Virus record (IMG/VR): IMGVR_UViG_3300009603_000019
Location: 1 to 51,939 of that record
From: a virus
Taxonomy: Duplodnaviria; Caudoviricetes
Reading direction: 5' to 3' (one strand)
DNA length: 51,939 nt
Positions within the stretch are counted from its first letter, which is position 1. Every line of letters starts with the position of its first letter. A program made the position numbers and the translations under genes. The notes beneath the pieces were generated by a model. The model was not told the origin of the DNA and searched no databases. It saw only the letters and a program-made list of their open reading frames with translations. Shown piece by piece: positions 33,947 to 51,939 of the stretch.

Positions 33947-34684
33947 GTGGAAAACCTTGCCCAGAAATTCATCAACTCTGATCTGTTCTCTGTCTATACG
34001 ATGACCCTTGACTTCAAGGAAAAGCTCTGTGGTGGTATCCCCAAGTCAGAGAAAGCCATCGAAGGCTGGATACGAGCTAACGTAGAAGACAAGAGCAAGC
34101 TGGAGCAGATGGTAGCAGACACTAAGGAGTCCATGAATGTAGACAACCTTAGCGAAAGCGATCTGGAAAACCTCGCCAAGTCTGCATGGAATGGATTCAA
34201 ATCTGATGAACGCGGACTCTACATAGAGGGCAGACAGATCAAGTCTATGTTTAAAGAATCTGCAAACGTAATCAAAAATGTTTTGAATGTCTCTGCTTTC
34301 AAGGCGAGAATAGCGGAGAGGGTCTTTGTCGTAGAGGACAAGGTGCATCTCCGCTATTCTGGATTGGATATCGCTTTGGCAGACATTTTTCAAGAACCTT
34401 CTGGATCATACGAAGGGATGGTTCATGCGATGACTGCCATGGGTAAAATCTCCGCATTGAAACGAGTTGATTACGTAGAGAAAGCTTATATAACTTTCAC
34501 CTTAAAGATCTTAAATGAGAAGATCATAACGAAAGATAAGAAACGTCTGGATGTCCCACAGTATATCATGCATTTGATTACGCACTCTCAAGAGAATGGT
34601 CTTGGGGCAGAGCGTAGTCAGGGCAATGGCAAATTTAATTGCTCTTTCTTTGGCCTCAAGGAGGAGATTAAGTCTAATGAATAA
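33947..34684 (+). CDS. Solitary Cas7/Csm3-like RAMP-superfamily protein
   Basis: First strand YTMTLDFKEKLCGG; GLYIEGRQIKSMFKE (cf. P.IPGSSlKG.lR); C-terminal glycine-rich loop GLGAERSQGNGKF; AAAGGA RBS; no other cas genes. Confidence 0.82.
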   Translation: MENLAQKFINSDLFSVYTMTLDFKEKLCGGIPKSEKAIEGWIRANVEDKSKLEQMVADTKESMNVDNLSESDLENLAKSAWNGFKSDERGLYIEGRQIKSMFKESANVIKNVLNVSAFKARIAERVFVVEDKVHLRYSGLDIALADIFQEPSGSYEGMVHAMTAMGKISALKRVDYVEKAYITFTLKILNEKIITKDKKRLDVPQYIMHLITHSQENGLGAERSQGNGKFNCSFFGLKEEIKSNE

Positions 34685-35009
34685 AGCTTTTACCACTGAG
34701 CAGTTGCTCCATATTGTTAACAAGAACATAGACAAAAACAGGGGGCCAAGCGAAGAAGCTTTAGAAGATTTAGCCCCTAATGGATGGCACTTGGTGCATA
34801 GGATCATGGTGCATAATAACGTAGAGTATAGATGTCGAGTTGCTCTATGCGTTCAAGGCACTAAGACACCAAGGATTGTCCTTATGGACATGGAGTTCGA
34901 GGACTACGAGCAGGGTCACGATCCTGATCATATCATTAAGCAAGCCGAAGAGCTTAATAATAAAATGAATAATCTTGATTCAGGGGAGATAGACGATGCT
35001 ATTATTTAG
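34677..35009 (+). CDS. Hypothetical protein coupled to the RAMP gene (start re-called to ATG 34677)
   Basis: AAGGAGGAG RBS; 8-nt overlap with the RAMP gene; 110 aa. Confidence 0.7.
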   Translation: MNKAFTTEQLLHIVNKNIDKNRGPSEEALEDLAPNGWHLVHRIMVHNNVEYRCRVALCVQGTKTPRIVLMDMEFEDYEQGHDPDHIIKQAEELNNKMNNLDSGEIDDAII

Positions 35010-35012
35010 AGC

Positions 35013-35041
35013 TTGACAAGAACATGACTCTTTAGTATCTT
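35013..35041 (+). promoter_or_regulatory. sigma70-type promoter upstream of the leader and pentamer array
   Basis: TTGACA (35013-18)-17 nt-TATCTT (35036-41). Confidence 0.7.
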
Positions 35042-35048
35042 AGGTATA

Positions 35049-35335
35049 GTCAGTGCCGAGTGAGTGAAGTGGACAACGAACGTAATATGCCTTATCATTA
35101 CCCCGTAAGGCTATTGCTTCCTATTCCCGGTCACGTTCGTTGACTACTGATCCCACTTCGGCACTGGCATCCTAGGGAAGAAGCAATAGCCTTCTTTCTT
35201 TAAAAGCCTTAGCGGGTCTGAGTACGGGAGTACCAGCACACCGAAGCACGGCAACATACTGGTGTATAAAGATAGTGCCGTGAACGATGGAGAGAGATAG
35301 CTTCAGCGAAGCTTATCGATAGCCGCCATCTTAAA
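35049..35335 (+). ncRNA. Structured leader RNA candidate
   Basis: Complementary pairs 35049-62/35154-68, 35074-83/35133-42 and 35107-20/35180-93 (14 bp perfect); further hairpins up to ~35330. Confidence 0.55.
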
Positions 35336-35381
35336 CAAAGGGTGAGGGAGTTTAGGAGGGGTGTATGGGACAGGTCTGTAC

Positions 35382-35519
35382 GACATTCCATATCGAGTCC
35401 GCTCCGCTCCGTTCAAATTGACTGATCCAATCCACTCAATTCCTGTCACTAGACAATTCTACTCCTTTCGTCTCCTTTCCATAGACTAGCCACACCACTC
35501 CTCTCCGTCCCTTATAGAC
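35382..35519 (+). repeat. Pentamer array part 1: 4 units of GAC-(NNNYC)5-6-N4-5
   Basis: GAC at 35382, 35420, 35452, 35484 and 35517; all 21 internal pentamers end in YC. Confidence 0.9.
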
Positions 35520-35600
35520 TTTTTCTCTTTACGCCGTAGGCGTACTGTACATCCTGTCCTACGGACAGTAAAAGAAAAGAAAAGAAAGGAAAGTAAGTAA

Positions 35601-35855
35601 GTGAAAGAAGTACGTACAAAGCAAGAGTTGATAAACGTACTGGAGGAACTGGATGCCCCCAATGAGGTTAAGCGTAGCATTTACTTCGACACTACAGGAG
35701 GAGGAGGCTTTGCTTTACACAACGAAGAGGCATTACGATTAAATAAAAAGAAGTATCCTGTATACTCCATAGTCTTACCAGACTCCAGCGGCATAGTTAT
35801 TACTGGAGAATTGAGAAAGTCTATGATAAAGGAGGCCAAAGCAAAAGTTTTTTGA
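35601..35855 (+). CDS. Hypothetical protein inserted between the two array parts
   Basis: 84 aa; GTG start after AAAGGA; normal coding composition without the pentamer period. Confidence 0.65.
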   Translation: MKEVRTKQELINVLEELDAPNEVKRSIYFDTTGGGGFALHNEEALRLNKKKYPVYSIVLPDSSGIVITGELRKSMIKEAKAKVF

Positions 35856-35863
35856 GATGAAAC

Positions 35864-36600
35864 GGCCCGTTTCATGCCAAGCCTCACCCCGATGACGTGA
35901 CATACCAAGCTAAGTCTAACCGTACCCAACCAACCTCTATCGACAAGCCGATTCGAGTCTTCTCAGATCTACTGACGGAGCGGAACTTTCCTATCCCTAT
36001 CGACAAGTCTTATCCATCCGATGCTATCCTATCCCTATCGACAAGCCGATGCTATCCTATTCTTATCGACAAGCCGACTCTACCCCTGTCGTACCAGACC
36101 ATATGACGAATCGAGCCCAGCCTCTTCGGACCCCTTTGACGTTTCAGGTCGTTACGAACCTTGTCTCCTCTAATGACATGCCAATCCGCTTCTATCTAAG
36201 CCCCTTGACCTTCCTAGTCGAGTCAAGTCAATTCGATTCTAGTTGACGATCCTAGTCGAGTCAAATCAAATCAATTCGATTCTAGTTGACGAGTCCATCC
36301 GTCTCTTGCCCCATCAAACCTGCCCTAATGACTGGTCATACCGCGTCCACTCTTATCAAGTCCATAGACATGCCGATTCCGCTCGACCCCGTTTGACTGG
36401 CCGCGTCCTTTCATTTCTTTTCGAGCCTGTTGACACCCCGTGTCCCCCCGTGCCAAGCCCGATGACTAGCCAGACCTCACCACCCCCATCTAAGTTGACA
36501 GATCTTATCCATGACAAGCCGAGCCAAGCCAAAAAACATTTGACGAGTCAAGTCCATCCCTACCAAGGGGCAATCCTCATCGACCCTTTCCATTTCCAGC
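35864..36600 (+). repeat. Pentamer array part 2: about 20 units of GAC-(NNNYC)n-N4-5
   Basis: GAC anchors at 35894, 35942, 35974, 36002, 36040, 36068, 36105, 36138, 36175, 36207, 36245, 36288, 36330, 36367, 36395, 36432, 36464, 36497, 36513, 36542 and 36582. Confidence 0.9.
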
Positions 36601-36631
36601 CAAGGGTTTTCCATTAACGAAAGGAGATAAC

Positions 36632-37084
36632 ATGGAAGACTTCAAGGGAAGCAAGAAGCACAACCGATCTGATACAGAGGATAGAGCATTCTCTTACAGG
36701 TCGTATCGTAGAAACTTTGGTGAAGGATTATACGTTAATGACCTTGACCATGTAGAATGGAGATTGGTAGATGGTGTGCCTACTCCAGTAGCCGTCCTTG
36801 AACTTACCAGAGTAGACAATGCCTTCTACAACGAAGACACAAAACGAAAATACCAGCAAGCTATCTTGGATCGTTTTGCCAGAGATGCTCAGCAGGACTT
36901 CGTTGTGGAGATGGCATATAGGCTAAGCGTATCAGCCTATATCATCTTATTTAACAAGGATCTCACTGACTTCTGGACCTATAACCTTTCGAGAGACGAT
37001 TATCCTAACACGGGAATCGTCAACGAATGGCATCACTATAGAGAATCGGGGTATAGATTATGGATAAAAAATCTGGAAGCTTAG
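36632..37084 (+). CDS. Possible PD-(D/E)XK-fold nuclease-like protein
   Basis: NDLDHVE...PVAVLELTR...Q...A..L...AYII pattern; AAGGAG RBS. Confidence 0.5.
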   Translation: MEDFKGSKKHNRSDTEDRAFSYRSYRRNFGEGLYVNDLDHVEWRLVDGVPTPVAVLELTRVDNAFYNEDTKRKYQQAILDRFARDAQQDFVVEMAYRLSVSAYIILFNKDLTDFWTYNLSRDDYPNTGIVNEWHHYRESGYRLWIKNLEA

Positions 37085-38953: not shown

Positions 38954-39238
38954 CTCTACGAAGCGACCCCACGGTAACACAACCGTGGGGTCTGCATTAT
39001 TCCTTTTGAGAATTAAACAATCATTATCCCCCAACCATTCCTCGATCTGCTTAAACCCCCCTCCGTTCTTCCTCGCTTTAACCTCCGCTATCCACCCTCC
39101 GAAGCTTATATCACCCGTGTAAGAGCCTCCTGCGGCCCCTGAGAGGGGAACGCGCTCAGCCCCTATCCCTGCCTCGTTCAGCCTATGCACAATCTCACGC
39201 TCTACGCGCAAACCCTTGTTGCGCTCACTCCGTCCCAA
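38897..39238 (-). CDS. Hjc-like Holliday junction resolvase
   Basis: KG.R.ERE, ERVPLSGA, GDI, AEVKAR. Confidence 0.85.
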   Translation of the reverse strand: MGRSERNKGLRVEREIVHRLNEAGIGAERVPLSGAAGGSYTGDISFGGWIAEVKARKNGGGFKQIEEWLGDNDCLILKRNNADPTVVLPWGRFVELYAALKESLEEAGQPTEV

Positions 39239-42200
39239 TGTTCAATCCCATTAGCTTAGCTCGCTTTCTGATTCGCCCCTTGATTTCAGCCACTCTCTTA
39301 CTGCCCTTCTTTTGAAACTCAAACCGTCTATGCCGCACCACAGCATCCACGTCAACCGTTCGTATTGGTACCCCCGCCACTCTGCCCCACACTTCCAACG
39401 GGGACTTACCCTTTGATAGATCTCTCGTAATAGACTTGATTTTAGAAGCAGGGGGCAATAGAGAATTTACTAAATGATCCATGTTAGGTCCATAGATGGC
39501 CGTTAAGTCTATATCCCCTACAAAGGTAGGATCATCTGCACCATACTCCTTTCTGATGGGCGCACCCGTCATCGTTTTCTCATTAGCCACTAGCTCATAG
39601 GTTGTCTTTAGTATGGGATGCATCCTCCCTATCCAAGCGTTCAAGTCTAAGATGCCCTCTGCTGTTTCTATGTCCAGATATGGTAGATCTGGCACGGCAT
39701 AGGTAGGCTGGTGGTCAATCATAAAAGGCAATCGTGTCGCTAGGTTCTCTTTAAAATAATCTGGAGTGGCAGGATCGTCTTGATACTCAACCTGAGACAA
39801 CTCGCCCAACTCCGCACGGGCCTTAGCTGCACTGGCATACTTGGCGGGACGATTGATGATAGATTCTATTTGCAGAGGAATATTCTTTCTTAACCATGTG
39901 TAGAAAGGAATGATGTTCCTCATAACATTTTTCTCAAAGTCGGTCAGTTCACTGTAGTCGAACAAATATTTTTTGACGTTGAATGCCGCCTCTGCCCCCG
40001 TCATTCCATCCAACATAGACTGTATGAACAAAGCCCCTCTGGCATTGTGTTCCGTAATACGTGCTGCCCCTCTTGTAAAACGCAGGTAAGCGTTATTGCC
40101 AAGAACCCTCTTCAACCCCTCCGCACTCAATGGGACTCTACGCTCCCCCGTGGCGGGATCTTTCCAACCCCTCGTTACTGTCTCCCCCTCCAACCCAAAT
40201 AGATAGTTCTTAGCCCGTTGACCAACCCCCGCTTCATGGGGGTCTTCTATCTGACCTAACTCCACCATCTGACTAAACAACTCACCCTTCTCTGGCTCAG
40301 CCTCGACCCCCTGACCAAGGAGATTGTTTATCTTCTGCTTAACCTCCATTGGCAATTCGTCAGGCAACAGTTTCTCCATGCCATTCGTCTCATAGATCTC
40401 CTTCATAGAGATCGTAAGCCTTTCAATGGCTGAGATATGATTGCTGGATAAGCCTACAGGTTTTAATGCCCCCTCCAAGATATACTTCTCTATGGCCAAT
40501 GCGAACTTCTCCTCCGCATTGACCTTTTCCCCCGGCAAGGGATCTGGGTCAGGCCACATGATCTGATCGACAAAATCACGGGTATCATCCTCACTGAATT
40601 GACGACCCAACGGTCTTGCCTCCCCATAAGCATCCTCGCTGAATGCCTCAAGACGCTTCTTCACCAAGTCCCTGCCCTTCGGCTCTCCCATCCCAAAGAT
40701 CCATCGATTGATGACATCCTTATCCCCATTCTCCAGCAAGTTGGATCGACGCGCCAAGTGCGCCAACTCATGGATCATCGTAGAGACATCACCACTCTTG
40801 AAAGCCACTATGGTTGCCCTGCCACTATCTAAAAAGTTGGTAAGTCCTTTGATCTTCTCTATTTCCCCTGACTTTTCCTTCTGGAAGAAGGTCATGCCGC
40901 CATTAAGAGCCTTGTTCGACAAGTCTTCGGAGATGTCTATGGCATTATACTTTCCCGTTTCATGTTCTATTGTAGACAATTTTAATGAAGGTCTTTCACC
41001 CACTGCCTTGGCAGGATCAGCAAGGTCATCTGCTTTTGCATCGACTCGATGGATAATCTTCCGAAAGGTATCACCTACCCCACCGCGTTCATTATTCTTG
41101 ATATAACGATCAGCCACTCTTTGATATTCATACTTAGCTACCGCTGCTGGACCCCAAGCCTGTGCTGTTGCTACTTGCTTCAGATTTGAGGCCCAGATTA
41201 TCTTTTTATAACCACCTTTTGCCGCCTCTTGTATAAGCAACTTTTGAGCTACCATAGGAAATGTGCCGGGACTCAGTGGAATTCCCCAACCACCCATATT
41301 CTCTTCGACACCTTGAAAATAATCACTTTGCAATTCGTGTAATACTAAATACTTATCATCATTATCAGGGTTGGGGTAATAATCACTTATTTTATAATGA
41401 CCTATAGCATTCTGTCTTGTCGAATATGGGGAAAAAGGCTCTTCTCCAAGCTCTGTGTATCCCGACCTTCTCGCACCAGACTGTGTCGCATCATCTATCA
41501 TAAATGGTCCCTCCTCAAGCACCTCTTCAAAGCGGGCCTTAGGACCTAAATCATGTTGAACGGCTTGCACGAAACCTTGGTCTAACCCTTCTGCTGCCAA
41601 CCTGTACTCATCAATACTTGCACCGGGTGATGGCATTCCTTCTGCCACTATGTATCCTGTTCTAAATCCAACATCTGAACGACCCCTAGATTCACCTAGG
41701 TAAGCCGCTCCTTGCGCCCTCTTCGCCGCTTCCTTAGCACGAGCCTCATCACGAGGATCGTCTAACTCCCATGGATCATAACGGATGTCATCTTCTGTTT
41801 GAAGTAACTCATCTTTTCTCCTTGCCGATAGGACTGCTTCCTTGCTGGTGATTGGAAGTTGTTTTTTATGGATGTTGTGAGGCCTCATATACGCCCCACT
41901 TGAATTTTGTCTAAACCAATAACCAGCCGCCCCTTCTTTAACCCTAGAGAGCTTAATAGAATTTTGAAGAATGATATCTGGAAACGCGAACATTGGCTTT
42001 TCAAGTCGTTGCCCTACTGTCACTATATTTTGTAGGGCTTCCGATATGAGAGCAGATGAATTATCCAATCCAAATTTCGGCTCTTCTAGATCCCTCATTC
42101 TTATAGTAGACTCTTGCAACTTCCCTCCAACTCCCCGGCGATACTTAGCTCCTGTTCTCGGTTCCAGAGCGGTGGGCAACTTATGTCCAGCCACCGGGTC

Positions 42201-45200
42201 CGCTGCATAAAAAACATTTTTATCTAACGAGCCATTTTTTATCATCTGGTCTATCAACACTTCAGATAGGTCAGATCGTATCGTTAGGTCTAAGGGTTCT
42301 GTAAAATCCTTTGTATTTGCGGGATTCAAAATTCGCCAAATGATCTGATCGTTTTTATTAGAAGGATTTAATCGTATCCTCATGGGAGAAGTAGCATAAC
42401 GTATATCATCTTGATAGCTTGATGGCTCTCTAAATGTGTGTCCAAAAGAGCTTTCTGTAGTAGGCTCTCCCGATGCAGTTAGTGGAGAACCCTTCCCGTA
42501 GAAATCTGCCTCCCCCTTAGTTAACCCCGATGAGGGTTCAAGTCCCCAACGATGAGAAAGGCGCGGTGACAATTGAGGAAGTCTGTGTCCAAATATTATT
42601 TGACCGTCATCCAAGCGTTGCTCCAATGCTAATTCCCCATTGGGGCTTAACATTTGTCCCTGCGAAAGCTCTGCTGGCCTTACGCGAAATAGACCACGAT
42701 CCATAGCGTTTACTAAATTGTTCTTTGTAATCTTTTGATTGGGAAAGTTTTCAACCGCATAATTCAACCAATCGTCAAACATCATAAATTCTTCACCTTC
42801 GCCGGGATGTCGTAAGGAAGTCCACTCTTTTTCTTTTGCCAGTCTTCTTGGATCATCTGGCCAAGCCTTGCCCTTCTTTTCTGTTTCAACCAGTCTCGTT
42901 TTAGGTATATTGGTTCTGCTGCCCTCAATTACGGGACCAAGCTTTTTCTTTAACTCTGCAAAGGTAAGCATCTGCTCCCCACTCTCATCTTTGCGCCATA
43001 TGGATTTCTTACGCTTGGATTCCTCCTCAACAAAAGAGGCCATCATACTACGCAATGCTGGCATCGCCTCCGTCTTCTCGTCCCACCATGGTTTCCATCC
43101 CGAATCATCCGTAGCTGCCTGAGGAAGGACATCAAAAATGTTTTGCTCCACATACTTGGACTTGACCTGATTGAAATCACTAAACCCTTCGATGGTAAGT
43201 TTATTCCACCACTCTGCCGGGACACCCCCACTATACCACGCCCACTGTCTGGCCATGCCATCGTATAATTCGGCTAGGGCATGAGCCTCCTCTTTTGAAA
43301 TCTCCTCATTCTTGATGCTGGCAAACACCTCCTGTATGTGTCGGGTAGCATTGTTGACCCGCTCTTTTGTATCACCCCACGATGGCATCCCCTGTATCCC
43401 CTCACGGATAGCCCCGACAGGAATAGTTCTGGCACTGTGGTAAATGCCATAGGCAGCACTCTCCACACCAGCCAGTTCAGCCATCTCATTCGTGCTAAAC
43501 GTCTGGGCGAATATACCGTGTTTGTCCATCTCACTTCTCATGTCCTTGAGACTTAAGACTCTTCCATCTTTCAGCTTGAACTTATAATCTTGAATAACCT
43601 TAGGACCACCCACCTTGAATTCTACATAAGACCTTAGTCCGCGAGGCATGTTGTCTGTACCACCCCATTGGAGCATAGCTGCCTCAAGGTAACGCACTGG
43701 ATTCGTTACGCCAGCTACGTAGTTGGTGAATATATTCGATTGGACATTACGCGCTACGTAACCCCAACTGCCTAAAGCCCATTGCCGCCATAGAGTTGTC
43801 CCCATCTGCCACTGTTTCCAAAGCTTAGACCACCCTCCAGACTTCGACACATCTACAGCCCCCTCCATAAGTTCATTAGTAGTCTTAAGGGCATTGACCA
43901 TATCCTTGGGCATGGCGTAAAAAACAGCCCCCTCACCCTTCCACTCTCCCGCTGGAGAATAGAAATCAAAACCCTTTGATAAAAACTTCTTATGCAGAGG
44001 ATGTGCTTTATCTGTAGCTATAGCCATATCTACAGGGATGGTAAGCGTCCTGTCGTTGAGTATATACTCCTGAAACTTCTTTGTATTTCTCAATCTCAAA
44101 GACTCAAAGGAGCGATTCCCATACAACAATGCATAGTCCATTTCAGAAGGACTCAATCCCAGCAGCTTACTATACAGATCTTTATATGTAGCTTTGTTTT
44201 GAAATGTAGCTTTTACGTCTCCCTCCATATGAGAGAAAAAACTCTGCCTACCCTCAGATGACATGATCTTCTGCATTATATGCTCTATGTCCGCTTCACT
44301 ATCCATGCTTGTTTCAAGAAATCGGCGCATAGTGCGTTCGCCAGAAGCACTTAGGGGGGCTCGACTTGGCAAGTAATCGCTTCTCAATTCTGTTTGATCT
44401 AAGAGGCCATGTTTTAAATCTTTATCTGTCATCTCTTTGGTAAGAGACTTAACGAGATTCAACATCTCGTACATCTTTTCCTTGAAATCAGCATCCCCCG
44501 GCCCCTCGTCAATCATTCTCTTTGCCGACTTCGTATTGGCTGCAAGGAGACTCATAGCATACCGTGCATCCAGACCGTACACCTTAGTCATGTGCAGCAT
44601 CGCATTCTTAATAGCTTGTGATTCAGAAGCACTATCAAGAGAAGCCTTGTTAACAAACCCTAAGTATTTGGAGGCATTGTTTTGGATAGACTCATCAAGA
44701 GCCTCATCTGACAAACCCGTAAGATGCTCCACCAACTCTCCCTTATCTACGTTAGCACCTTGTGCGCCAGCTATTTCTTCTGCATTCTCTTTTAAAAACT
44801 TTCTGAAAGTAGCAGCCGTCGCTGGATTCTGTAGCCTCTTGATCACATTATTTTGAATAAACAGCCCGCCAAATCCCCTTTTCGGTAGATGGGCATCCAG
44901 TTTCCCCATAGTACTAAGGACCAGATTGACATGATTAGAAACCCCCTCTGGCACCGTGTACCCTTCCTCTCGTAAGCTTGGAATAACCTTGCCAAGCTTC
45001 GTCCTGCGTGGCTCTAATAAAGCTTTCTCAGCGGCTGTCTCCTCCATATCAAAAATACGCAACTGCTCATGCATATCCTCTTCAATGAAGGGCTTGCCTG
45101 ATTCGTCTGTCGCACCAATTTTCTTTTCAAGATCTTCTTCTAGATTGGCTCTTCGTATGGCCACATCTTGCTGTGGATCAGCAAGTTTCGTATTCAACGC

Positions 45201-46091
45201 CTTCCTTGCCCTGAACTCTGCTTCTACCGTTGTCTCCACGCCCCTTAGAAATCGCCCTCCCTTAAGGGCTCTTGCGCCCTTTCCTATAAACCCAACGCCC
45301 GTATACGTCAGTGGATCAAGCATTATATCTGCTAGCAGGCCTAGTGCGGCTAGCTGATAATTTTCAGCCGAAGATAGGGGTATGGTATTCAGCCGCGCTG
45401 CCTCTGACGTACGATAATCCTTATCCGCCACCACCCTTATTAAATCACCCCACTTCATCATTGCCTCCCAAGGATTCGTCGCTCTAGTCTCCTCGTATAT
45501 CCCAAAACCAGCATCTAATAATTTTTTACCAATAATTCCATTGTTGGATCTAAGGATCTGACCCCACTCTGCACGGTAGGCGGGCCTATTGAGTATAGAT
45601 CCATATTCTGGATCATAATCGTCATCAAAGGTATAACGCAACTCGCTCAAAGATTGTTTGAAAGCTTCCCCTACATCACCCGTCCTCATCATCTCCAGCA
45701 CCCCACCCGTAATCATATACAGAGGCGTTTGAAGAACATCAACCGTTGTTTGTAGGAGCCCCTCCGTTTTATGTCTTTTTGAGTCAAGAGCAATTTCGTC
45801 GGAGAAATCATCCAGATAGTTCTCACCCGGCTCTATATCGCCCGTCAAGATGCCCTGCTGCGTCAACATTCCCTCTGGTCCCATAGTCTGTATATTGCGC
45901 TGGCTAGAGGTTAACGCACTCCTCTCGCTTCTATTTTGATTGCGCCTTGTAAGAGCATCGATGTCACGGGTAACCCTATAGCCGGGGAACTGCGTTGACT
46001 CAAGAGATACAAAATCATCCGACAATGGATAGCCCTGCTGCCGCTGCTGATCTGAGACAGACTCTCTGATTAAATCGGTAAAAATGGCCAT
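39225..46091 (-). CDS. Giant internal virion / large polyvalent protein
   Basis: 2288 aa; DPLTY N-terminal motif, ELQSD, DVSTMIHELAH...EEKFA...Y..EG, C-terminal FDYSELT...IPFYTW.RKN. Confidence 0.75.
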   Translation of the reverse strand: MAIFTDLIRESVSDQQRQQGYPLSDDFVSLESTQFPGYRVTRDIDALTRRNQNRSERSALTSSQRNIQTMGPEGMLTQQGILTGDIEPGENYLDDFSDEIALDSKRHKTEGLLQTTVDVLQTPLYMITGGVLEMMRTGDVGEAFKQSLSELRYTFDDDYDPEYGSILNRPAYRAEWGQILRSNNGIIGKKLLDAGFGIYEETRATNPWEAMMKWGDLIRVVADKDYRTSEAARLNTIPLSSAENYQLAALGLLADIMLDPLTYTGVGFIGKGARALKGGRFLRGVETTVEAEFRARKALNTKLADPQQDVAIRRANLEEDLEKKIGATDESGKPFIEEDMHEQLRIFDMEETAAEKALLEPRRTKLGKVIPSLREEGYTVPEGVSNHVNLVLSTMGKLDAHLPKRGFGGLFIQNNVIKRLQNPATAATFRKFLKENAEEIAGAQGANVDKGELVEHLTGLSDEALDESIQNNASKYLGFVNKASLDSASESQAIKNAMLHMTKVYGLDARYAMSLLAANTKSAKRMIDEGPGDADFKEKMYEMLNLVKSLTKEMTDKDLKHGLLDQTELRSDYLPSRAPLSASGERTMRRFLETSMDSEADIEHIMQKIMSSEGRQSFFSHMEGDVKATFQNKATYKDLYSKLLGLSPSEMDYALLYGNRSFESLRLRNTKKFQEYILNDRTLTIPVDMAIATDKAHPLHKKFLSKGFDFYSPAGEWKGEGAVFYAMPKDMVNALKTTNELMEGAVDVSKSGGWSKLWKQWQMGTTLWRQWALGSWGYVARNVQSNIFTNYVAGVTNPVRYLEAAMLQWGGTDNMPRGLRSYVEFKVGGPKVIQDYKFKLKDGRVLSLKDMRSEMDKHGIFAQTFSTNEMAELAGVESAAYGIYHSARTIPVGAIREGIQGMPSWGDTKERVNNATRHIQEVFASIKNEEISKEEAHALAELYDGMARQWAWYSGGVPAEWWNKLTIEGFSDFNQVKSKYVEQNIFDVLPQAATDDSGWKPWWDEKTEAMPALRSMMASFVEEESKRKKSIWRKDESGEQMLTFAELKKKLGPVIEGSRTNIPKTRLVETEKKGKAWPDDPRRLAKEKEWTSLRHPGEGEEFMMFDDWLNYAVENFPNQKITKNNLVNAMDRGLFRVRPAELSQGQMLSPNGELALEQRLDDGQIIFGHRLPQLSPRLSHRWGLEPSSGLTKGEADFYGKGSPLTASGEPTTESSFGHTFREPSSYQDDIRYATSPMRIRLNPSNKNDQIIWRILNPANTKDFTEPLDLTIRSDLSEVLIDQMIKNGSLDKNVFYAADPVAGHKLPTALEPRTGAKYRRGVGGKLQESTIRMRDLEEPKFGLDNSSALISEALQNIVTVGQRLEKPMFAFPDIILQNSIKLSRVKEGAAGYWFRQNSSGAYMRPHNIHKKQLPITSKEAVLSARRKDELLQTEDDIRYDPWELDDPRDEARAKEAAKRAQGAAYLGESRGRSDVGFRTGYIVAEGMPSPGASIDEYRLAAEGLDQGFVQAVQHDLGPKARFEEVLEEGPFMIDDATQSGARRSGYTELGEEPFSPYSTRQNAIGHYKISDYYPNPDNDDKYLVLHELQSDYFQGVEENMGGWGIPLSPGTFPMVAQKLLIQEAAKGGYKKIIWASNLKQVATAQAWGPAAVAKYEYQRVADRYIKNNERGGVGDTFRKIIHRVDAKADDLADPAKAVGERPSLKLSTIEHETGKYNAIDISEDLSNKALNGGMTFFQKEKSGEIEKIKGLTNFLDSGRATIVAFKSGDVSTMIHELAHLARRSNLLENGDKDVINRWIFGMGEPKGRDLVKKRLEAFSEDAYGEARPLGRQFSEDDTRDFVDQIMWPDPDPLPGEKVNAEEKFALAIEKYILEGALKPVGLSSNHISAIERLTISMKEIYETNGMEKLLPDELPMEVKQKINNLLGQGVEAEPEKGELFSQMVELGQIEDPHEAGVGQRAKNYLFGLEGETVTRGWKDPATGERRVPLSAEGLKRVLGNNAYLRFTRGAARITEHNARGALFIQSMLDGMTGAEAAFNVKKYLFDYSELTDFEKNVMRNIIPFYTWLRKNIPLQIESIINRPAKYASAAKARAELGELSQVEYQDDPATPDYFKENLATRLPFMIDHQPTYAVPDLPYLDIETAEGILDLNAWIGRMHPILKTTYELVANEKTMTGAPIRKEYGADDPTFVGDIDLTAIYGPNMDHLVNSLLPPASKIKSITRDLSKGKSPLEVWGRVAGVPIRTVDVDAVVRHRRFEFQKKGSKRVAEIKGRIRKRAKLMGLNIGTE

Positions 46092-48023: not shown

Positions 48024-51000
48024 TTATGGCTGCGTTGCTGTACTTAATGCACTTGCCGCGTTAGTCGCTACTCCTGCTGGATTACCTGTTTTTGCCGCTA
48101 CCACAGCACCTACTACATTTCCAGCAATAGCTCCGAACTTAGCCCATCCGCTGGTACGAGCCACCTGACGCTCTGGAGTAACATTGCCTCCATTAAGAAG
48201 AGCAAATATCCCCTCCAACTGACCCTCACCCTTATAGTTATCTACCCAGTTTTCTGGTATCAACCGTGTGGAAATGTTTCTATGGCTATTCATGCCAAAT
48301 TCTGTAGAGCCTAGATCTATCTCTCCATCATCAATAAAATTCATAGCCTCAGCTATCGACATTGGTCTGCCCCATATCTCCTCAAAACGGCCAGAATAAG
48401 CTTTCAATGTCCTCATTCCTTCTTCTGAAAACACATCTGTAGACTTTTTCAGGCCAGAAAATTCTGGTATAGTCATAGATGAAAACTCACGGGCATAATC
48501 TTGATTAGACGCTATTCGATCCCTACCTGCTGGAGTTATAAGATCCAATGCCCCGAATATAGTATAGTCGGCAAACTGATTCCTAACAGAATTCCAACCA
48601 CCTTCATCTCGTTTCTCTGCATTTAACCACGATTTTCTATCTTCAACAGATGGAAGTATTCCTGTTTCGGTAATATGACTCAATGAAAATGACTCGCCAT
48701 AAGATTGGGTAATTTTCTCTGCCAAAGCTCCAGCTACAAATTGTTCTAATATATCTCTTTTAATAACATCATCAACTAATCCATAATTACCTTCTATGGA
48801 ATCAAACAATCTTGGAGGAGGATTTTCCATTAAACTATCTACAATAGTAGACACGCTTCCCGCATCTGCAATTAGAACTTCTCCACTGTCTAATTTCGGT
48901 ACCATCTCTCGCGCATTCGCACTTGCTATATATCTCCTAATATTACTAGCAGCTCTATTTCTATGATCATCCCCGGTTTCATCATCAAATTTAGGATTTG
49001 CTTCCCTCCATCTACTAATCAACGCATTGTAATCACTCTCTGTTGCAACCTCTGGATCATAGCCTGACATTACTTCAACCATATTCCTTCCATGAGATTC
49101 TGTTGCCAGTTCTCTATAAACTTTTTCCCAATGAGCGGGAATGGATGATCCTATATCTGTATATTCATTTATATAACTCATAGTGTCATTAAACAATATT
49201 CTGTGACTATCATACAAGTCAATATTTGTAGCTTCCTCTTCTCTAGCTCCCATCAACCCTCCCCATACCGCATCATACTTCTCCTCTTGTAAGTCTGCCT
49301 GTTCGTTCGCTCTTAAGAATTTACTCTCTTCAAACTTATTTGCCTGTGCAATATCCTTTAATTGATTGCCAAAGGTATTGTCAAAGACTTCATTGGCTTG
49401 TCTCCAGTTTGAATTAAATGTCTCTTGTTCAGTCAAATACTCATCAGTTCCCGGCTGGAACCCGAGGGCTCTCATATACGTTTCTTTAGCTTTAGTTTCT
49501 GCCATATAGCGCAAGTCAGGATTTTCATCACCATTCTTTGCGGGGTCAGGAGATAGGGGATCATACATCTTATCATACTGGTATTTAGCATCTCTGAACC
49601 CATCATTACTCATTCCAAAGGTTTCAGATACATCACCAATACCTATATACCATGCCCTGTCAGCCTCTTGCTTTGCATTTTGAAATCTTTCTACATCCAA
49701 ATCATTCTCTTTGGAAATGGCATCATACTTATTCATACGATCAAGGTTCTGCATCACAATAGCCGTAGCTATTTGTCGGGATTCTAAAGTAGGTATTCCC
49801 GCCACAGTCAGGTCTTCACCATTTACTAACAACTCCAATTGATCTAAGGTTGGTAAGGCACCCGTAAGAGCCTGAAAGGACTGAGAGATCGTTCGACCTA
49901 CGTCTGTATCGACCAGATGCATTCCCGGCAGTTCCTTTGTCTCAGCATCGATCTCCGAAAGTGGAATGCCTAAATCGCCAAGGTTTATAATACCCTCCAT
50001 GTCTCCAGCAACGCCCGTTATGCCAGCCCATCCTTGAGCGATCTCTGCCGATAGGGAGCGAGTCTGATTGATAATATCAGAGTTCATCTTTTTCAACATG
50101 GCTGCCGTTTCCATCTCACTCAAACCATATTGTGCCGCAAACTCATTGATCTTATTCCCCAACGTCTTATTGAACTGGCGAATATTTTCATATATCTGAG
50201 TCTGCGTTATATCCAACTCCCTGCTTCGTAAGGCCAATGAATCAGTACTCTCTTTCTCCTGTGCCTGAATGCTGGCATCAAACTGTCTACCTCGCTCTTC
50301 CAAGTCCTCGGCTTCTAACCCCAACTTGTCAGTGCTAATATCAATATTGGCCAGCGAGGCAAAGGAATCGGTTAACGTAGTTACCTGTAACGCCGCATAC
50401 TCAGATTTCTTTTGACTGATGGCTAAATCTATGTCGCGTAAGCTGGTTTGATAATTACTGGCCAGATCCTCATATTGCCGCTGCTCTTGGCCACTCCCAG
50501 AAAGCCCATTGACTAGAAAATATCGGTTCGCTTCTTCCAACTGATCATCGTAATCCTCCCTAGCCTGTTCCCGCATCAACCTCTTTTCTTCATCTAGGTC
50601 ATAATTGCCAAAAGAAGTGAGGGCACTTGATAAGGCTGTTGAAAAATCTTTCCTCAAATCACTTTTGGTGAAAGCATCTGTATTTTGAAATCGCTCTAAC
50701 CCCGCTAGAAAATTAGCGACCTCAGGGGAATCTGTAAGATTCTTACCCAGCGTCTCTATCATCAATGCCACTATATCATCCGACTCAGTAGGGCTAACCG
50801 ATGAATAAGTGACATTGCTATCTGGGTCTTTGAACTCTGTCAACCATTCTGCCCCCTCCGCTCTTTCCCAAAAATCTTCCTCTGACTCTCCCGGCCTTGA
50901 GGCTATGTTATATACATCATCTTTATAAAAGGGATGACCGTAGCCGCCATACTCTGGAGTCAAATTAAAAACTTCTACCTCTTCTACCTCCTCAGACCCA

Positions 51001-51939
51001 TCCGCATTAGTCGTAACGACTTCCTGTTTTACCATTTTTCCTGCTGGAGGCGCACCCGACCCTCCAGCATTCTTGAATACCGTATACGCCTCTGTAGGAG
51101 TAGCCCCCTTTTCCAATGCCTGATGATATGCTTCCTCAGGAGACACCCTCATCTGATCGAAAATATCAAACTTGTCAAACAAAGCATTTACTGCAATCAT
51201 AGGATCAAGCTCAGTGGCAGTAACTGTACTGCCATCTCGTGCTTTTACCTCTAACTCTTTTCTTTCTACAAAGGTTAAAGGCCTGACCCGTGTTCCTTGA
51301 AAATGAGCAAAATAACCTCTCCCTATATCTGCTACCGTATTGAGAAGAGTAGAAGAATCCACATGCATATTATTGCCATCCAACCTAGCTTGAACCAAAC
51401 TGACTATTTGTTCTTCTGTCAAGGTGCCAGCCATATTATCAAACACATCATTAATCACATCACTTAAGGCTTCTGGCTCAATAAGTTGCTTGCCATCATA
51501 AAGGGCTATATGATCTTCCGTCGCCTTTGTCTGGTCATTCCTTAAGACCTCTTCTTCTAAAAGTTGTTCGTCCGTCTTGGGCGGCAGGAGCATGGCCTTT
51601 AGCCGCTCCTTCTCACCCTCTGACAGATTAGACCTTTCTATATCAAATAGAGAAGGAGCAGGTATTTCTGGATTAACTTGAGAAGCCCGTATCTTATTAG
51701 AGAAATCGTTGAATAGACCCACCCTTGCTGGATCAGCAGAAGGAATTAAAGAAGTGGGATCTACGTCTGGATCTACAGCCTTAGGAATTAAAGAAGTAGG
51801 ATCTACGTCTGGATCTACAGCCTTAGGAATTAAAGAAGTAGGATCTACATCTGGATCTACAGCCTTAGGAATTAAAGAAGTAGGATCTACATCTGGATCT
51901 ACAGCCTTAGGAATTAAAGAAGTAGGATCTATACTAGGA
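48024..51939 (-). CDS. C-terminal part of the giant internal virion protein; frame open to the window end
   Basis: The frame of 48024..51722 continues without a stop through LIPKAVDPDVDPTS repeats to 51938; acidic and helical with a C-terminal Gly/Ala hydrophobic segment. Confidence 0.85.
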   Translation of the reverse strand, partial: PSIDPTSLIPKAVDPDVDPTSLIPKAVDPDVDPTSLIPKAVDPDVDPTSLIPKAVDPDVDPTSLIPSADPARVGLFNDFSNKIRASQVNPEIPAPSLFDIERSNLSEGEKERLKAMLLPPKTDEQLLEEEVLRNDQTKATEDHIALYDGKQLIEPEALSDVINDVFDNMAGTLTEEQIVSLVQARLDGNNMHVDSSTLLNTVADIGRGYFAHFQGTRVRPLTFVERKELEVKARDGSTVTATELDPMIAVNALFDKFDIFDQMRVSPEEAYHQALEKGATPTEAYTVFKNAGGSGAPPAGKMVKQEVVTTNADGSEEVEEVEVFNLTPEYGGYGHPFYKDDVYNIASRPGESEEDFWERAEGAEWLTEFKDPDSNVTYSSVSPTESDDIVALMIETLGKNLTDSPEVANFLAGLERFQNTDAFTKSDLRKDFSTALSSALTSFGNYDLDEEKRLMREQAREDYDDQLEEANRYFLVNGLSGSGQEQRQYEDLASNYQTSLRDIDLAISQKKSEYAALQVTTLTDSFASLANIDISTDKLGLEAEDLEERGRQFDASIQAQEKESTDSLALRSRELDITQTQIYENIRQFNKTLGNKINEFAAQYGLSEMETAAMLKKMNSDIINQTRSLSAEIAQGWAGITGVAGDMEGIINLGDLGIPLSEIDAETKELPGMHLVDTDVGRTISQSFQALTGALPTLDQLELLVNGEDLTVAGIPTLESRQIATAIVMQNLDRMNKYDAISKENDLDVERFQNAKQEADRAWYIGIGDVSETFGMSNDGFRDAKYQYDKMYDPLSPDPAKNGDENPDLRYMAETKAKETYMRALGFQPGTDEYLTEQETFNSNWRQANEVFDNTFGNQLKDIAQANKFEESKFLRANEQADLQEEKYDAVWGGLMGAREEEATNIDLYDSHRILFNDTMSYINEYTDIGSSIPAHWEKVYRELATESHGRNMVEVMSGYDPEVATESDYNALISRWREANPKFDDETGDDHRNRAASNIRRYIASANAREMVPKLDSGEVLIADAGSVSTIVDSLMENPPPRLFDSIEGNYGLVDDVIKRDILEQFVAGALAEKITQSYGESFSLSHITETGILPSVEDRKSWLNAEKRDEGGWNSVRNQFADYTIFGALDLITPAGRDRIASNQDYAREFSSMTIPEFSGLKKSTDVFSEEGMRTLKAYSGRFEEIWGRPMSIAEAMNFIDDGEIDLGSTEFGMNSHRNISTRLIPENWVDNYKGEGQLEGIFALLNGGNVTPERQVARTSGWAKFGAIAGNVVGAVVAAKTGNPAGVATNAASALSTATQP
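51741..51930. repeat. 42-bp coding tandem repeat (about 4.5 copies), same as at 1-230
   Basis: Same unit sequence as at the window start. Confidence 0.95.

Follow-up and report, generated by a model that had tools for sequence, protein, structure and literature searches.

Introduction

VIPR (Viral Interference Programmable Repeat) systems, as outlined in two preprints of 2026, are CRISPR-related and are used by phages to silence their rivals: vrRNAs composed of 9–16 YNNGG repeats and a structured 3′ tail act with a phage-borne Vipr protein of the RAMP type, each repeat being bound by one protomer with its GGY bases hidden, the NN bases pair with DNA so that every third target base is skipped, and rival phages and satellites are silenced as the outcome (10.64898/2026.04.26.720920, 10.64898/2026.04.26.720927). 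Here we describe a locus in a phage record of 51,939 bases, the whole of IMG/VR entry IMGVR_UViG_3300009603_000019 (Duplodnaviria; Caudoviricetes; estimated completeness 98%) and hereafter termed the window, in which C-rich pentanucleotide arrays at 35382–36600 follow a gene for a Cas7-like protein. On the evidence of sequence comparison and a fold model these arrays are very probably the guide-RNA arrays of a divergent VIPR-like system, because their grammar is of the VIPR kind and the adjoining gene encodes a Cas7-like (Vipr) protein.

The published outline of the family lists seven VIPR types, with the alternative repeats NNNGG, YNNNG and NNNNG and with ‘staggered’ and ribozyme-spaced arrays (10.64898/2026.04.26.720920), and a further VIPR preprint appeared in 2026 (10.64898/2026.10.15.759431). 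Non-canonical clusters with fixed trinucleotides (GAC/NN, CAC/NN, WGT/NN and TGH/NN) and about 10 repeats per array have also been outlined (10.64898/2026.10.21.760802). In the Vipr protein of Escherichia phage SUSP1 the Asp-Trp-Arg of the G-loop is said in the VIPR preprints to read G1, G2 and Y3, respectively.

As far as these text descriptions go, the locus in the window most resembles VIPR type II (Escherichia phage SUSP1 and a Pseudomonas fulva prophage), which is likewise a phage-borne, minimal locus with a small stand-alone RAMP bearing a G-loop and a helical insert, and with adjoining pentanucleotide repeats that combine fixed and hypervariable positions and whose guides differ between relatives. 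It departs from type II in its fixed bases (Y-C in the sense direction, G-R antisense, rather than G-G-Y), in the number of repeats per unit (3–7 rather than 9–16) and in the packing of its units, which stand head to tail with only GAC and a 0–5-nt tail between them, whereas type II has RNAs of about 100 nt with a structured pseudoknot tail. Further departures are the number of units (24 in the window and 73 pattern matches in the array of one relative), the structured RNA 5′ of the array, and a protein of a 220–260-aa family that is about 13% identical to the SUSP1-type profile and is without the Asp and Trp of the G-loop. The locus thus has what defines VIPR in the broad sense, namely a Vipr-homologous RAMP, pentanucleotide repeats beside its gene and a mainly viral context, and lacks what defines type II, namely GGY on the vipr strand, 9–16 repeats with a 3′ tail, and a G-loop Asp-Trp-Arg.

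VIPR types I and III–VII and the non-canonical clusters share with the window a relaxed or non-GG motif, compact arrays without a long tail and an adjoining Vipr-like fold. GAC is a fixed trinucleotide in the non-canonical clusters and a unit marker in the window, and those clusters are described as having about 10 repeats per array as opposed to rows of 3–7-repeat units here. The variant is marked by a YC/GR core, short GAC-punctuated units, long compact arrays, an altered G-loop and a 5′ structured leader; the published types may already include it. Class 1 CRISPR-Cas systems (Cas7, Csm3, Cmr4) share the fold and the idea of a guide divided by a protein filament into short stretches of pairing, but the window has no direct repeats and spacers, other cas genes or adaptation genes, and its period is 5 nt with two reading bases as against 6 nt with five. 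An identity as CRISPR-Cas was rejected, there being no repeat families beyond two local duplications and no Cas-like protein other than the RAMP. The arrays of type III toxin-antitoxin systems (ToxI-like) have an endoribonuclease toxin next to tandem repeats of some 36 nt that are almost identical; such an array was likewise rejected, as the units of the window are all different and no such toxin family was matched.

Results

The segment 35010–36631 of the window is nearly devoid of coding sequence and holds two arrays on the plus strand, array A (35382–35516) and array B (35899–36581). Cutting at GAC gave four units in array A (starting at 35382, 35420, 35452 and 35484), each made up of GAC, 5–6 NNNYC pentamers and a 4–5-nt tail, and about 20 units of 16–43 nt in array B, 17 of 20 of which measure 28, 32/33, 37/38 or 42/43 nt in a manual parse where GACs inside pentamer runs were merged. 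All units taken together, there are 3–7 in-phase repeats, tails of 0–5 nt and a GAC at every start; many junctions read TTGAC or TGAC. The autocorrelation of C at a lag of 5 nt was 0.46 at 35382–35520 and 0.34 at 35860–36600, with z-scores of 5.5 and 9.4 against 2000 dinucleotide-preserving shuffles whose maxima were 0.30 and 0.14, and the top 19 of approximately 1035 segments of 200 nt, covering the entire 51.9-kb record, all lay inside 35251–36501. The pattern GAC(NNNYC)5 matched 13 times, always on the plus strand and within 35382–36459 (0.08 expected), and its six-pentamer version seven times (0.01 expected). A sequence logo, in which positions 4–5 were preset by the search pattern and only positions 1–3 are informative, revealed no conservation in these three positions; the third has no purine/pyrimidine preference, so that GGY occurs on neither strand.

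An earlier, sequence-only reading of this DNA had proposed just such a grammar of GAC, (NNNYC)n and a short tail with lengths in 5-nt steps, variable pentamer positions 1–3 and degenerate 3′ units, and all of this is borne out, together with the period-5 enrichment of C; array B does decay, toward the ribosome-binding site of the downstream gene. Its expectation that repeat finders would miss the pattern also held, since Tandem Repeats Finder returned just two local unit duplications (36018–36077 and 36205–36277). It had taken the span for one continuous array, which proved to be two, interrupted at 35517–35898 by two hairpins, a polypurine tract, an 84-aa open reading frame (ORF) and a third hairpin.

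Two readings of the array itself can be weighed at this point. It might encode a repetitive protein, as mechanically called ORFs of 69 and 124 aa (35897–36106 and 36243–36617) overlap array B, but repeats of 5 nt do not keep step with triplet codons, units of 28–43 nt shift the frame, and the arrays of relatives have no units in common and so conserve no protein; we consider such a protein next to impossible and already contradicted by the sequence. Alternatively, the transcript might matter by composition only, as a C-rich, G-poor RNA serving as a Rho-loading (YC) region or as a TRAP-like decoy for an RNA-binding ring protein rather than as a guide. The primary binding sites of Rho bind YC dinucleotides, and the arrays are 34–37% C and 11–17% G, which fits, but this would leave unexplained why GAC punctuates the arrays, why unit lengths are quantised, why the variable bases are unique and why a Cas7-like gene is linked to them, and we regard it as extremely unlikely. 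TRAP-like triplet sites in particular were set aside, the order of the conserved dinucleotide being wrong. T7-type primase GTC sites and GANTC methylation sites were also considered and dropped, as were two-tier G-quadruplexes on the minus strand (GA is as frequent as GG in the window) and a promoter of its own for every unit (the distances between them vary too much).

The same grammar recurs elsewhere. A two-unit pattern that matched seven times in the window and never in its shuffles retrieved 59 stretches from a viral collection, many of them with long arrays on one strand; one array, of about 2.9 kb with 73 pattern matches and units of exactly 3+5n nt, lies on a GC-rich contig of 118 kb. 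Across 84 related loci the spacing between units was 3 modulo 5 in 460 of 816 cases, with peaks at 23, 28, 33, 38, 43 and 48, and the modal number of in-phase repeats per unit was 4–6. In one AT-rich relative all junctions read CATAATT-GAC. The array grammar is therefore a recurring class and not a one-off.

An all-against-all comparison of ORFs found one protein family in 22 of the 60 sources (21 of the 59 viral stretches and the window). Its member in the window, the 245-aa product of an ORF at 33947–34684 on the plus strand, here called the vipr-like gene, belongs to no Pfam or PHROG family; other members are of some 220–260 aa. Its C-terminal G-loop reads G-L-G-AERSQ-G-N-G, and the form G-h-G-xxRSQ-G-x-G common to the family is of RAMP type. 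An AlphaFold (AF2) model built from 17 sequences had a pLDDT of 81 and a pTM of 0.76, and its best Foldseek matches were Cmr4, Csm3 and type VII Cas7, with E-values from 2e-7 to 1e-5. A second, smaller family of six proteins from six stretches matches PDB 36pp_D, ‘SUSP1 Vipr protein’, with an E-value of 1.6e-32, and hhalign aligned the profile of the window family with that of these SUSP1-Vipr-like proteins over 137 columns at a probability of 94%, an E-value of 1.4e-7 and about 13% identity; matched directly to 36pp_D, the profile of the window family gave an E-value of only 0.87. In this alignment the Asp of the SUSP1 G-loop (which reads G1) faces an Ala and the Trp (G2) a variable residue, whilst the Arg is kept. 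By profile comparison and predicted fold, the protein of the window is a stand-alone Cas7-type RAMP homologous to Vipr. The sequence-only reading had noticed the promoter and gene orientation and missed this adjoining gene, the ORF that splits the array and the identity of the system.

Array and gene travel together, across loci of 42–70% GC. The cultured Microcystis phage Mae-JY09 (L131 6001–7170; PP395641.1 37713–38880) encodes a member of the same Vipr-like family, annotated as hypothetical, and after the vipr-like gene come an array of some 400 nt in the grammar of the window and then a GC-rich hairpin near the right genome end. Among pattern hits from cellular genomes the gene was present in only 2 of 120. 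A narrow protein alignment of the Vipr-like family against a genome collection, blastn of the array region against cultured phages, and locus searches with each of two neighbouring proteins produced no match, and a search of the literature on pentanucleotide periodicity in phages turned up nothing useful. No neighbouring gene was common to the whole Vipr-like family across the loci compared. In 11 GC-rich loci (L010, L019, L020, L024, L028, L029, L035, L037, L044, L047 and L050) a protein of about 172 aa, without a family match in the ESM Atlas, Pfam or PHROGs, is encoded directly upstream of the arrays, and in L010, L020, L029, L037 and L047 the TGA stop codon of its gene is shared in part with the array's first GAC; the gene is a candidate for an accessory role in this GC-rich sub-clade. 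One further locus (L053, 2795–3075) carries a canonical-type array of (GGTNN)6–15 units, each ending in GGCAG and 4 nt apart, without a long tail, which is a G-type counterpart of the compact layout in the window.

The distribution of the arrays also bears on a function at the level of DNA, as replication-origin iterons, as a ParB centromere or as TTGAC −35-like boxes that titrate a sigma factor or another protein that binds DNA. The window has a ParB-like gene 1.5 kb upstream, and the TTGAC or TGAC junctions would suit such boxes. Synteny with ParB is nevertheless confined to seven close marine relatives, whereas the arrays follow the RAMP gene over the full range of GC contents, and promoter-like sites are no commoner than in shuffles (4 against 3.8 expected); strict polarity on one strand, a 5-bp period in which only two bases are fixed, and variable bases that turn over completely suit an RNA better. 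We consider this very unlikely. Even when taken together, the DNA-level, composition and protein explanations are improbable, because none of them accounts for the linkage to a RAMP gene across 42–70% GC, for the strict confinement to one strand, or for units whose lengths are quantised and whose contents are unique.

Much of the evidence concerns the strand from which the RNA would be read. A search for RNA sequencing runs that contain this sequence gave none, and the argument is an indirect one. The C-rich strand is the sense strand of the vipr-like gene in 21 of the 22 sources found by pattern (17 distinct proteins) and in 46 of 70 loci for which similarity of the protein was the only search criterion, with none in the opposite orientation, the other 24 being too short or having fewer than three units. 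Mae-JY09 has five units on the vipr sense strand and none on the other, and both of the cellular-genome loci (2/2) agree, giving an overall tally of 71 to 1. Canonical SUSP1-like loci have GGYNN on the gene strand in 6/6 cases. A 4199-nt metagenome contig (L072, 1–3700) carries two VIPR systems one after the other, the two genes and their two arrays all lying on the same strand, with GGYNN runs flanking a SUSP1-like Vipr and GAC(NNNYC) units flanking a Vipr of the window family, an arrangement which suggests two scaffolds without cross-talk. Arrays abut plus-strand genes on both sides at gaps of 0–30 nt, and in several loci the stop codon of the preceding gene is where the array begins, and some 30 nt separate its end from the start that follows.

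In the window the arrays are preceded by a sigma-70-type promoter (35013–35041, plus strand; TTGACA, a 17-nt spacer and TATCTT), found by a consensus scan, whose −35 box does not change in 7/7 aligned relatives, nor does T-A-T-x-T-T in its −10 box, whilst the spacer varies. It is followed by a structured leader RNA (35048–35335, plus strand) of about 290 nt, conserved in seven marine relatives, which runs into array A. The leader folds as a single sequence with z = −5.9, and RNAalifold on seven sequences predicted 74 pairs; 17 of these show compensatory changes, and many include G-U pairs that are possible on the plus strand only. It was unmatched in Rfam, where neither the window nor 15 related loci gave anything relevant under gathering and E-value thresholds, ribozymes included; a tRNA scan found none. 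It could be a leader, processing or antitermination element. Two invariant 14-nt stretches within it, 35107–35120 and 35180–35193, complement each other perfectly, so that a long-range helix or a pseudoknot could arise between them.

The functional RNA is probably the plus strand, because the C-rich strand and the vipr-like gene are co-oriented, a plus-strand promoter is conserved, and the leader has G-U pairs on that strand only. This agrees with the sequence-only reading, which had favoured the plus strand from the promoter and gene orientation and called it unproven.

The contents of the units turn over completely. Within the window they are unique, only one pair having at least four consecutive NN in common, and no unit is shared with any of four relatives whose Vipr proteins are 68–77% identical to that of the window; the leader RNA of relatives aligns with a mean column identity of 79% (seven sequences). 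Unique units, none of them common to four relatives, in arrays that travel with a RAMP gene, uphold the claim that the pattern carries information and did not arise by slippage. The composition of N1N2 fits codon positions 1–2 best of all frames, with log-likelihoods against background of +17 for 250 marine pentamers (−15 or lower for the other frames) and +9 for 1722 GC-rich pentamers (−142 or lower), and N3 adds nothing. This codon-like bias agrees with a code of NN pairs that skips the wobble base. Sense stop codons are depleted (60 observed against 99.7 expected), which N1N2 alone probably explains. DNA contigs of relatives break at 35362–35375, the start of the array, and leave 35933–36146 uncovered, a weak sign of array polymorphism. 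One contig, from a metagenome run that contains this phage and at a depth of 4.5, skips 235 nt in array B (36364–36600), which hints at variation of array length in the population but could be an assembly artefact at the repeats.

The most substantial rival, still unlikely, accepts a VIPR-like system but takes the minus strand as the functional RNA, an array of (G-R-N-N-N)n ending in GTC, of the ‘NNNGG’ kind and antisense to vipr. The alternative consensuses given in the published descriptions are all G-based (NNNGG, YNNNG, NNNNG), and on the minus strand the canonical layout would be retained, with fixed bases followed by NN. This reading would, however, oblige each lineage to have an antisense promoter within the particular gene that follows its array, and the arrays abut different plus-strand genes at gaps of 0–30 nt; the sole minus-strand promoter-like site 3′ of array B is kept in only one of three relatives. 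It runs counter to an orientation of 71 to 1 where canonical arrays share the strand of their gene, it would have the two systems of L072 read in opposite directions, and the residues that read G are missing from the protein.

Our preferred reading, of a divergent VIPR-like system with guides on the plus strand, has a probability of about 0.62, and a number of observations weigh against it. The minus-strand motif G-R-N-N-N is near the published NNNGG and preserves the canonical arrangement, in which conservation is highest at the base most distant from NN. One locus, L050 (a viral contig of 10.7 kb), has vipr on the G-rich strand of its flanking arrays, the only one to do so; it has another array on the other strand 5 kb away, and an inversion of the cassette is possible. 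The N1N2 of the plus strand resembles sense codons only, so that guides antisense to coding strands, reading mRNA from the minus strand, would explain it more simply, and the bias could also stem from selection against out-of-register YC. The TM-scores of the Foldseek matches are modest (0.38–0.54). A long untranslated C-rich RNA should attract Rho. If the NN rule applies, guides of 3–7 repeats would offer no more than 6–14 informative bases and thus weak specificity. Lastly, scans for targets in eight and later seven pairing registers, controlled with shuffled guides, gave nothing above these controls in about 0.5 Mb (1.09 million positions, both strands), the window and relatives. The sequence-only reading had suggested NN with a one-base skip as one way of reading the variable positions; the idea coincides with the targeting rule in the published outline of VIPR.

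The remaining features of the locus lie around the arrays. An ORF of 110 aa (34677–35009, plus strand), the start of which overlaps the vipr stop and was moved to MNKAFTTEQ after comparison of relatives, is a candidate accessory gene; by tblastn it is present in four relatives (L062, L063, L064 and L068) and absent in L067. Between the arrays, two 6-bp hairpins with 3-nt loops (35530–35568, plus strand), read from the sequence, are kept in L063 and L067 with compensatory changes, as judged by eye. They are followed 3′ by a polypurine tract (35569–35610, plus strand), roughly (AAAAG)n, that is conserved in relatives and precedes the ORF of 84 aa; it is 94% complementary to three pentamers of one array B unit (36406–36422), probably a low-complexity coincidence. 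The 84-aa ORF (35601–35855, plus strand), a second candidate accessory gene, has homologues of 49–64% identity at the matching place in L063, L065 and L067. Neither the 84-aa nor the 110-aa product matched a family in Pfam, PHROGs or the ESM Atlas, and both are restricted to the clade of the window. A further hairpin (35852–35880) between the 84-aa ORF and array B has no T-run on either side. Directly 3′ of array B stands an ORF of 150 aa (36632–37084, plus strand), with homologues in L063 and L067 and with a gap to the array that is too small for a promoter of its own.

Elsewhere, the window has genes for the large subunit of a terminase, for a major head protein, for a ParB-like protein and for an amidase. 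It also has two very large ORFs on the minus strand, of 2288 aa (39225–46091), with a faint tail-fibre match only, and of 1232 aa (48024–51722), with no match.

Discussion

The loci compared here show that the arrays are periodic in their grammar, that the protein has a RAMP fold and is homologous to Vipr, that array and gene are linked and co-oriented, and that the units turn over between relatives. That the RNA is expressed, processed at GAC and bound by the protein, how it pairs and what it targets we deduce by analogy with SUSP1. Transcription would start from the conserved promoter at 35013 and pass through the structured leader into the arrays. Each pentamer may then be bound by one Vipr-like protomer, with the fixed bases sequestered and the two variable bases exposed; these would read a DNA target with every third base skipped, and such reading would silence genes of competing phages or satellites. 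The scaffold would be N-Y-C with N1N2 as reading bases, in place of GGY, with GAC as the presumed marker that opens each short guide of 3–7 repeats. We tentatively suggest, as an attractive if doubtful extension, that a clade of Vipr proteins reads this pyrimidine scaffold, with GAC as the unit start, on the sense RNA, forming a second RNA ‘alphabet’ that is orthogonal to GGY.

If this is correct, a single phage could run two VIPR systems without cross-talk, as the tandem systems of L072 suggest, and dozens of guides of 3–7 repeats could be packed head to tail behind one promoter and one structured leader, a multiplex guide array far more compact than the characterised form. Provided that it is not already among the published types, it would also add a new sub-code to the noncontiguous recognition that RNA guides perform; should the supplements of those publications already list the subtype, the locus would be an ordinary new member in a marine phage. 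Mae-JY09, as a cultured carrier, could serve as an experimental model for the question of the strand.

More generally, the VIPR code and its packaging appear to vary beyond the characterised type II, in motif, in guide length, in rows of 24 to 73 units and in a protein without the GG-reading residues. Were the sense-strand reading to hold, two orthogonal scaffolds would exist in nature, which would bear on the evolution of these systems, and the second would provide an independent channel for programmable DNA binding.

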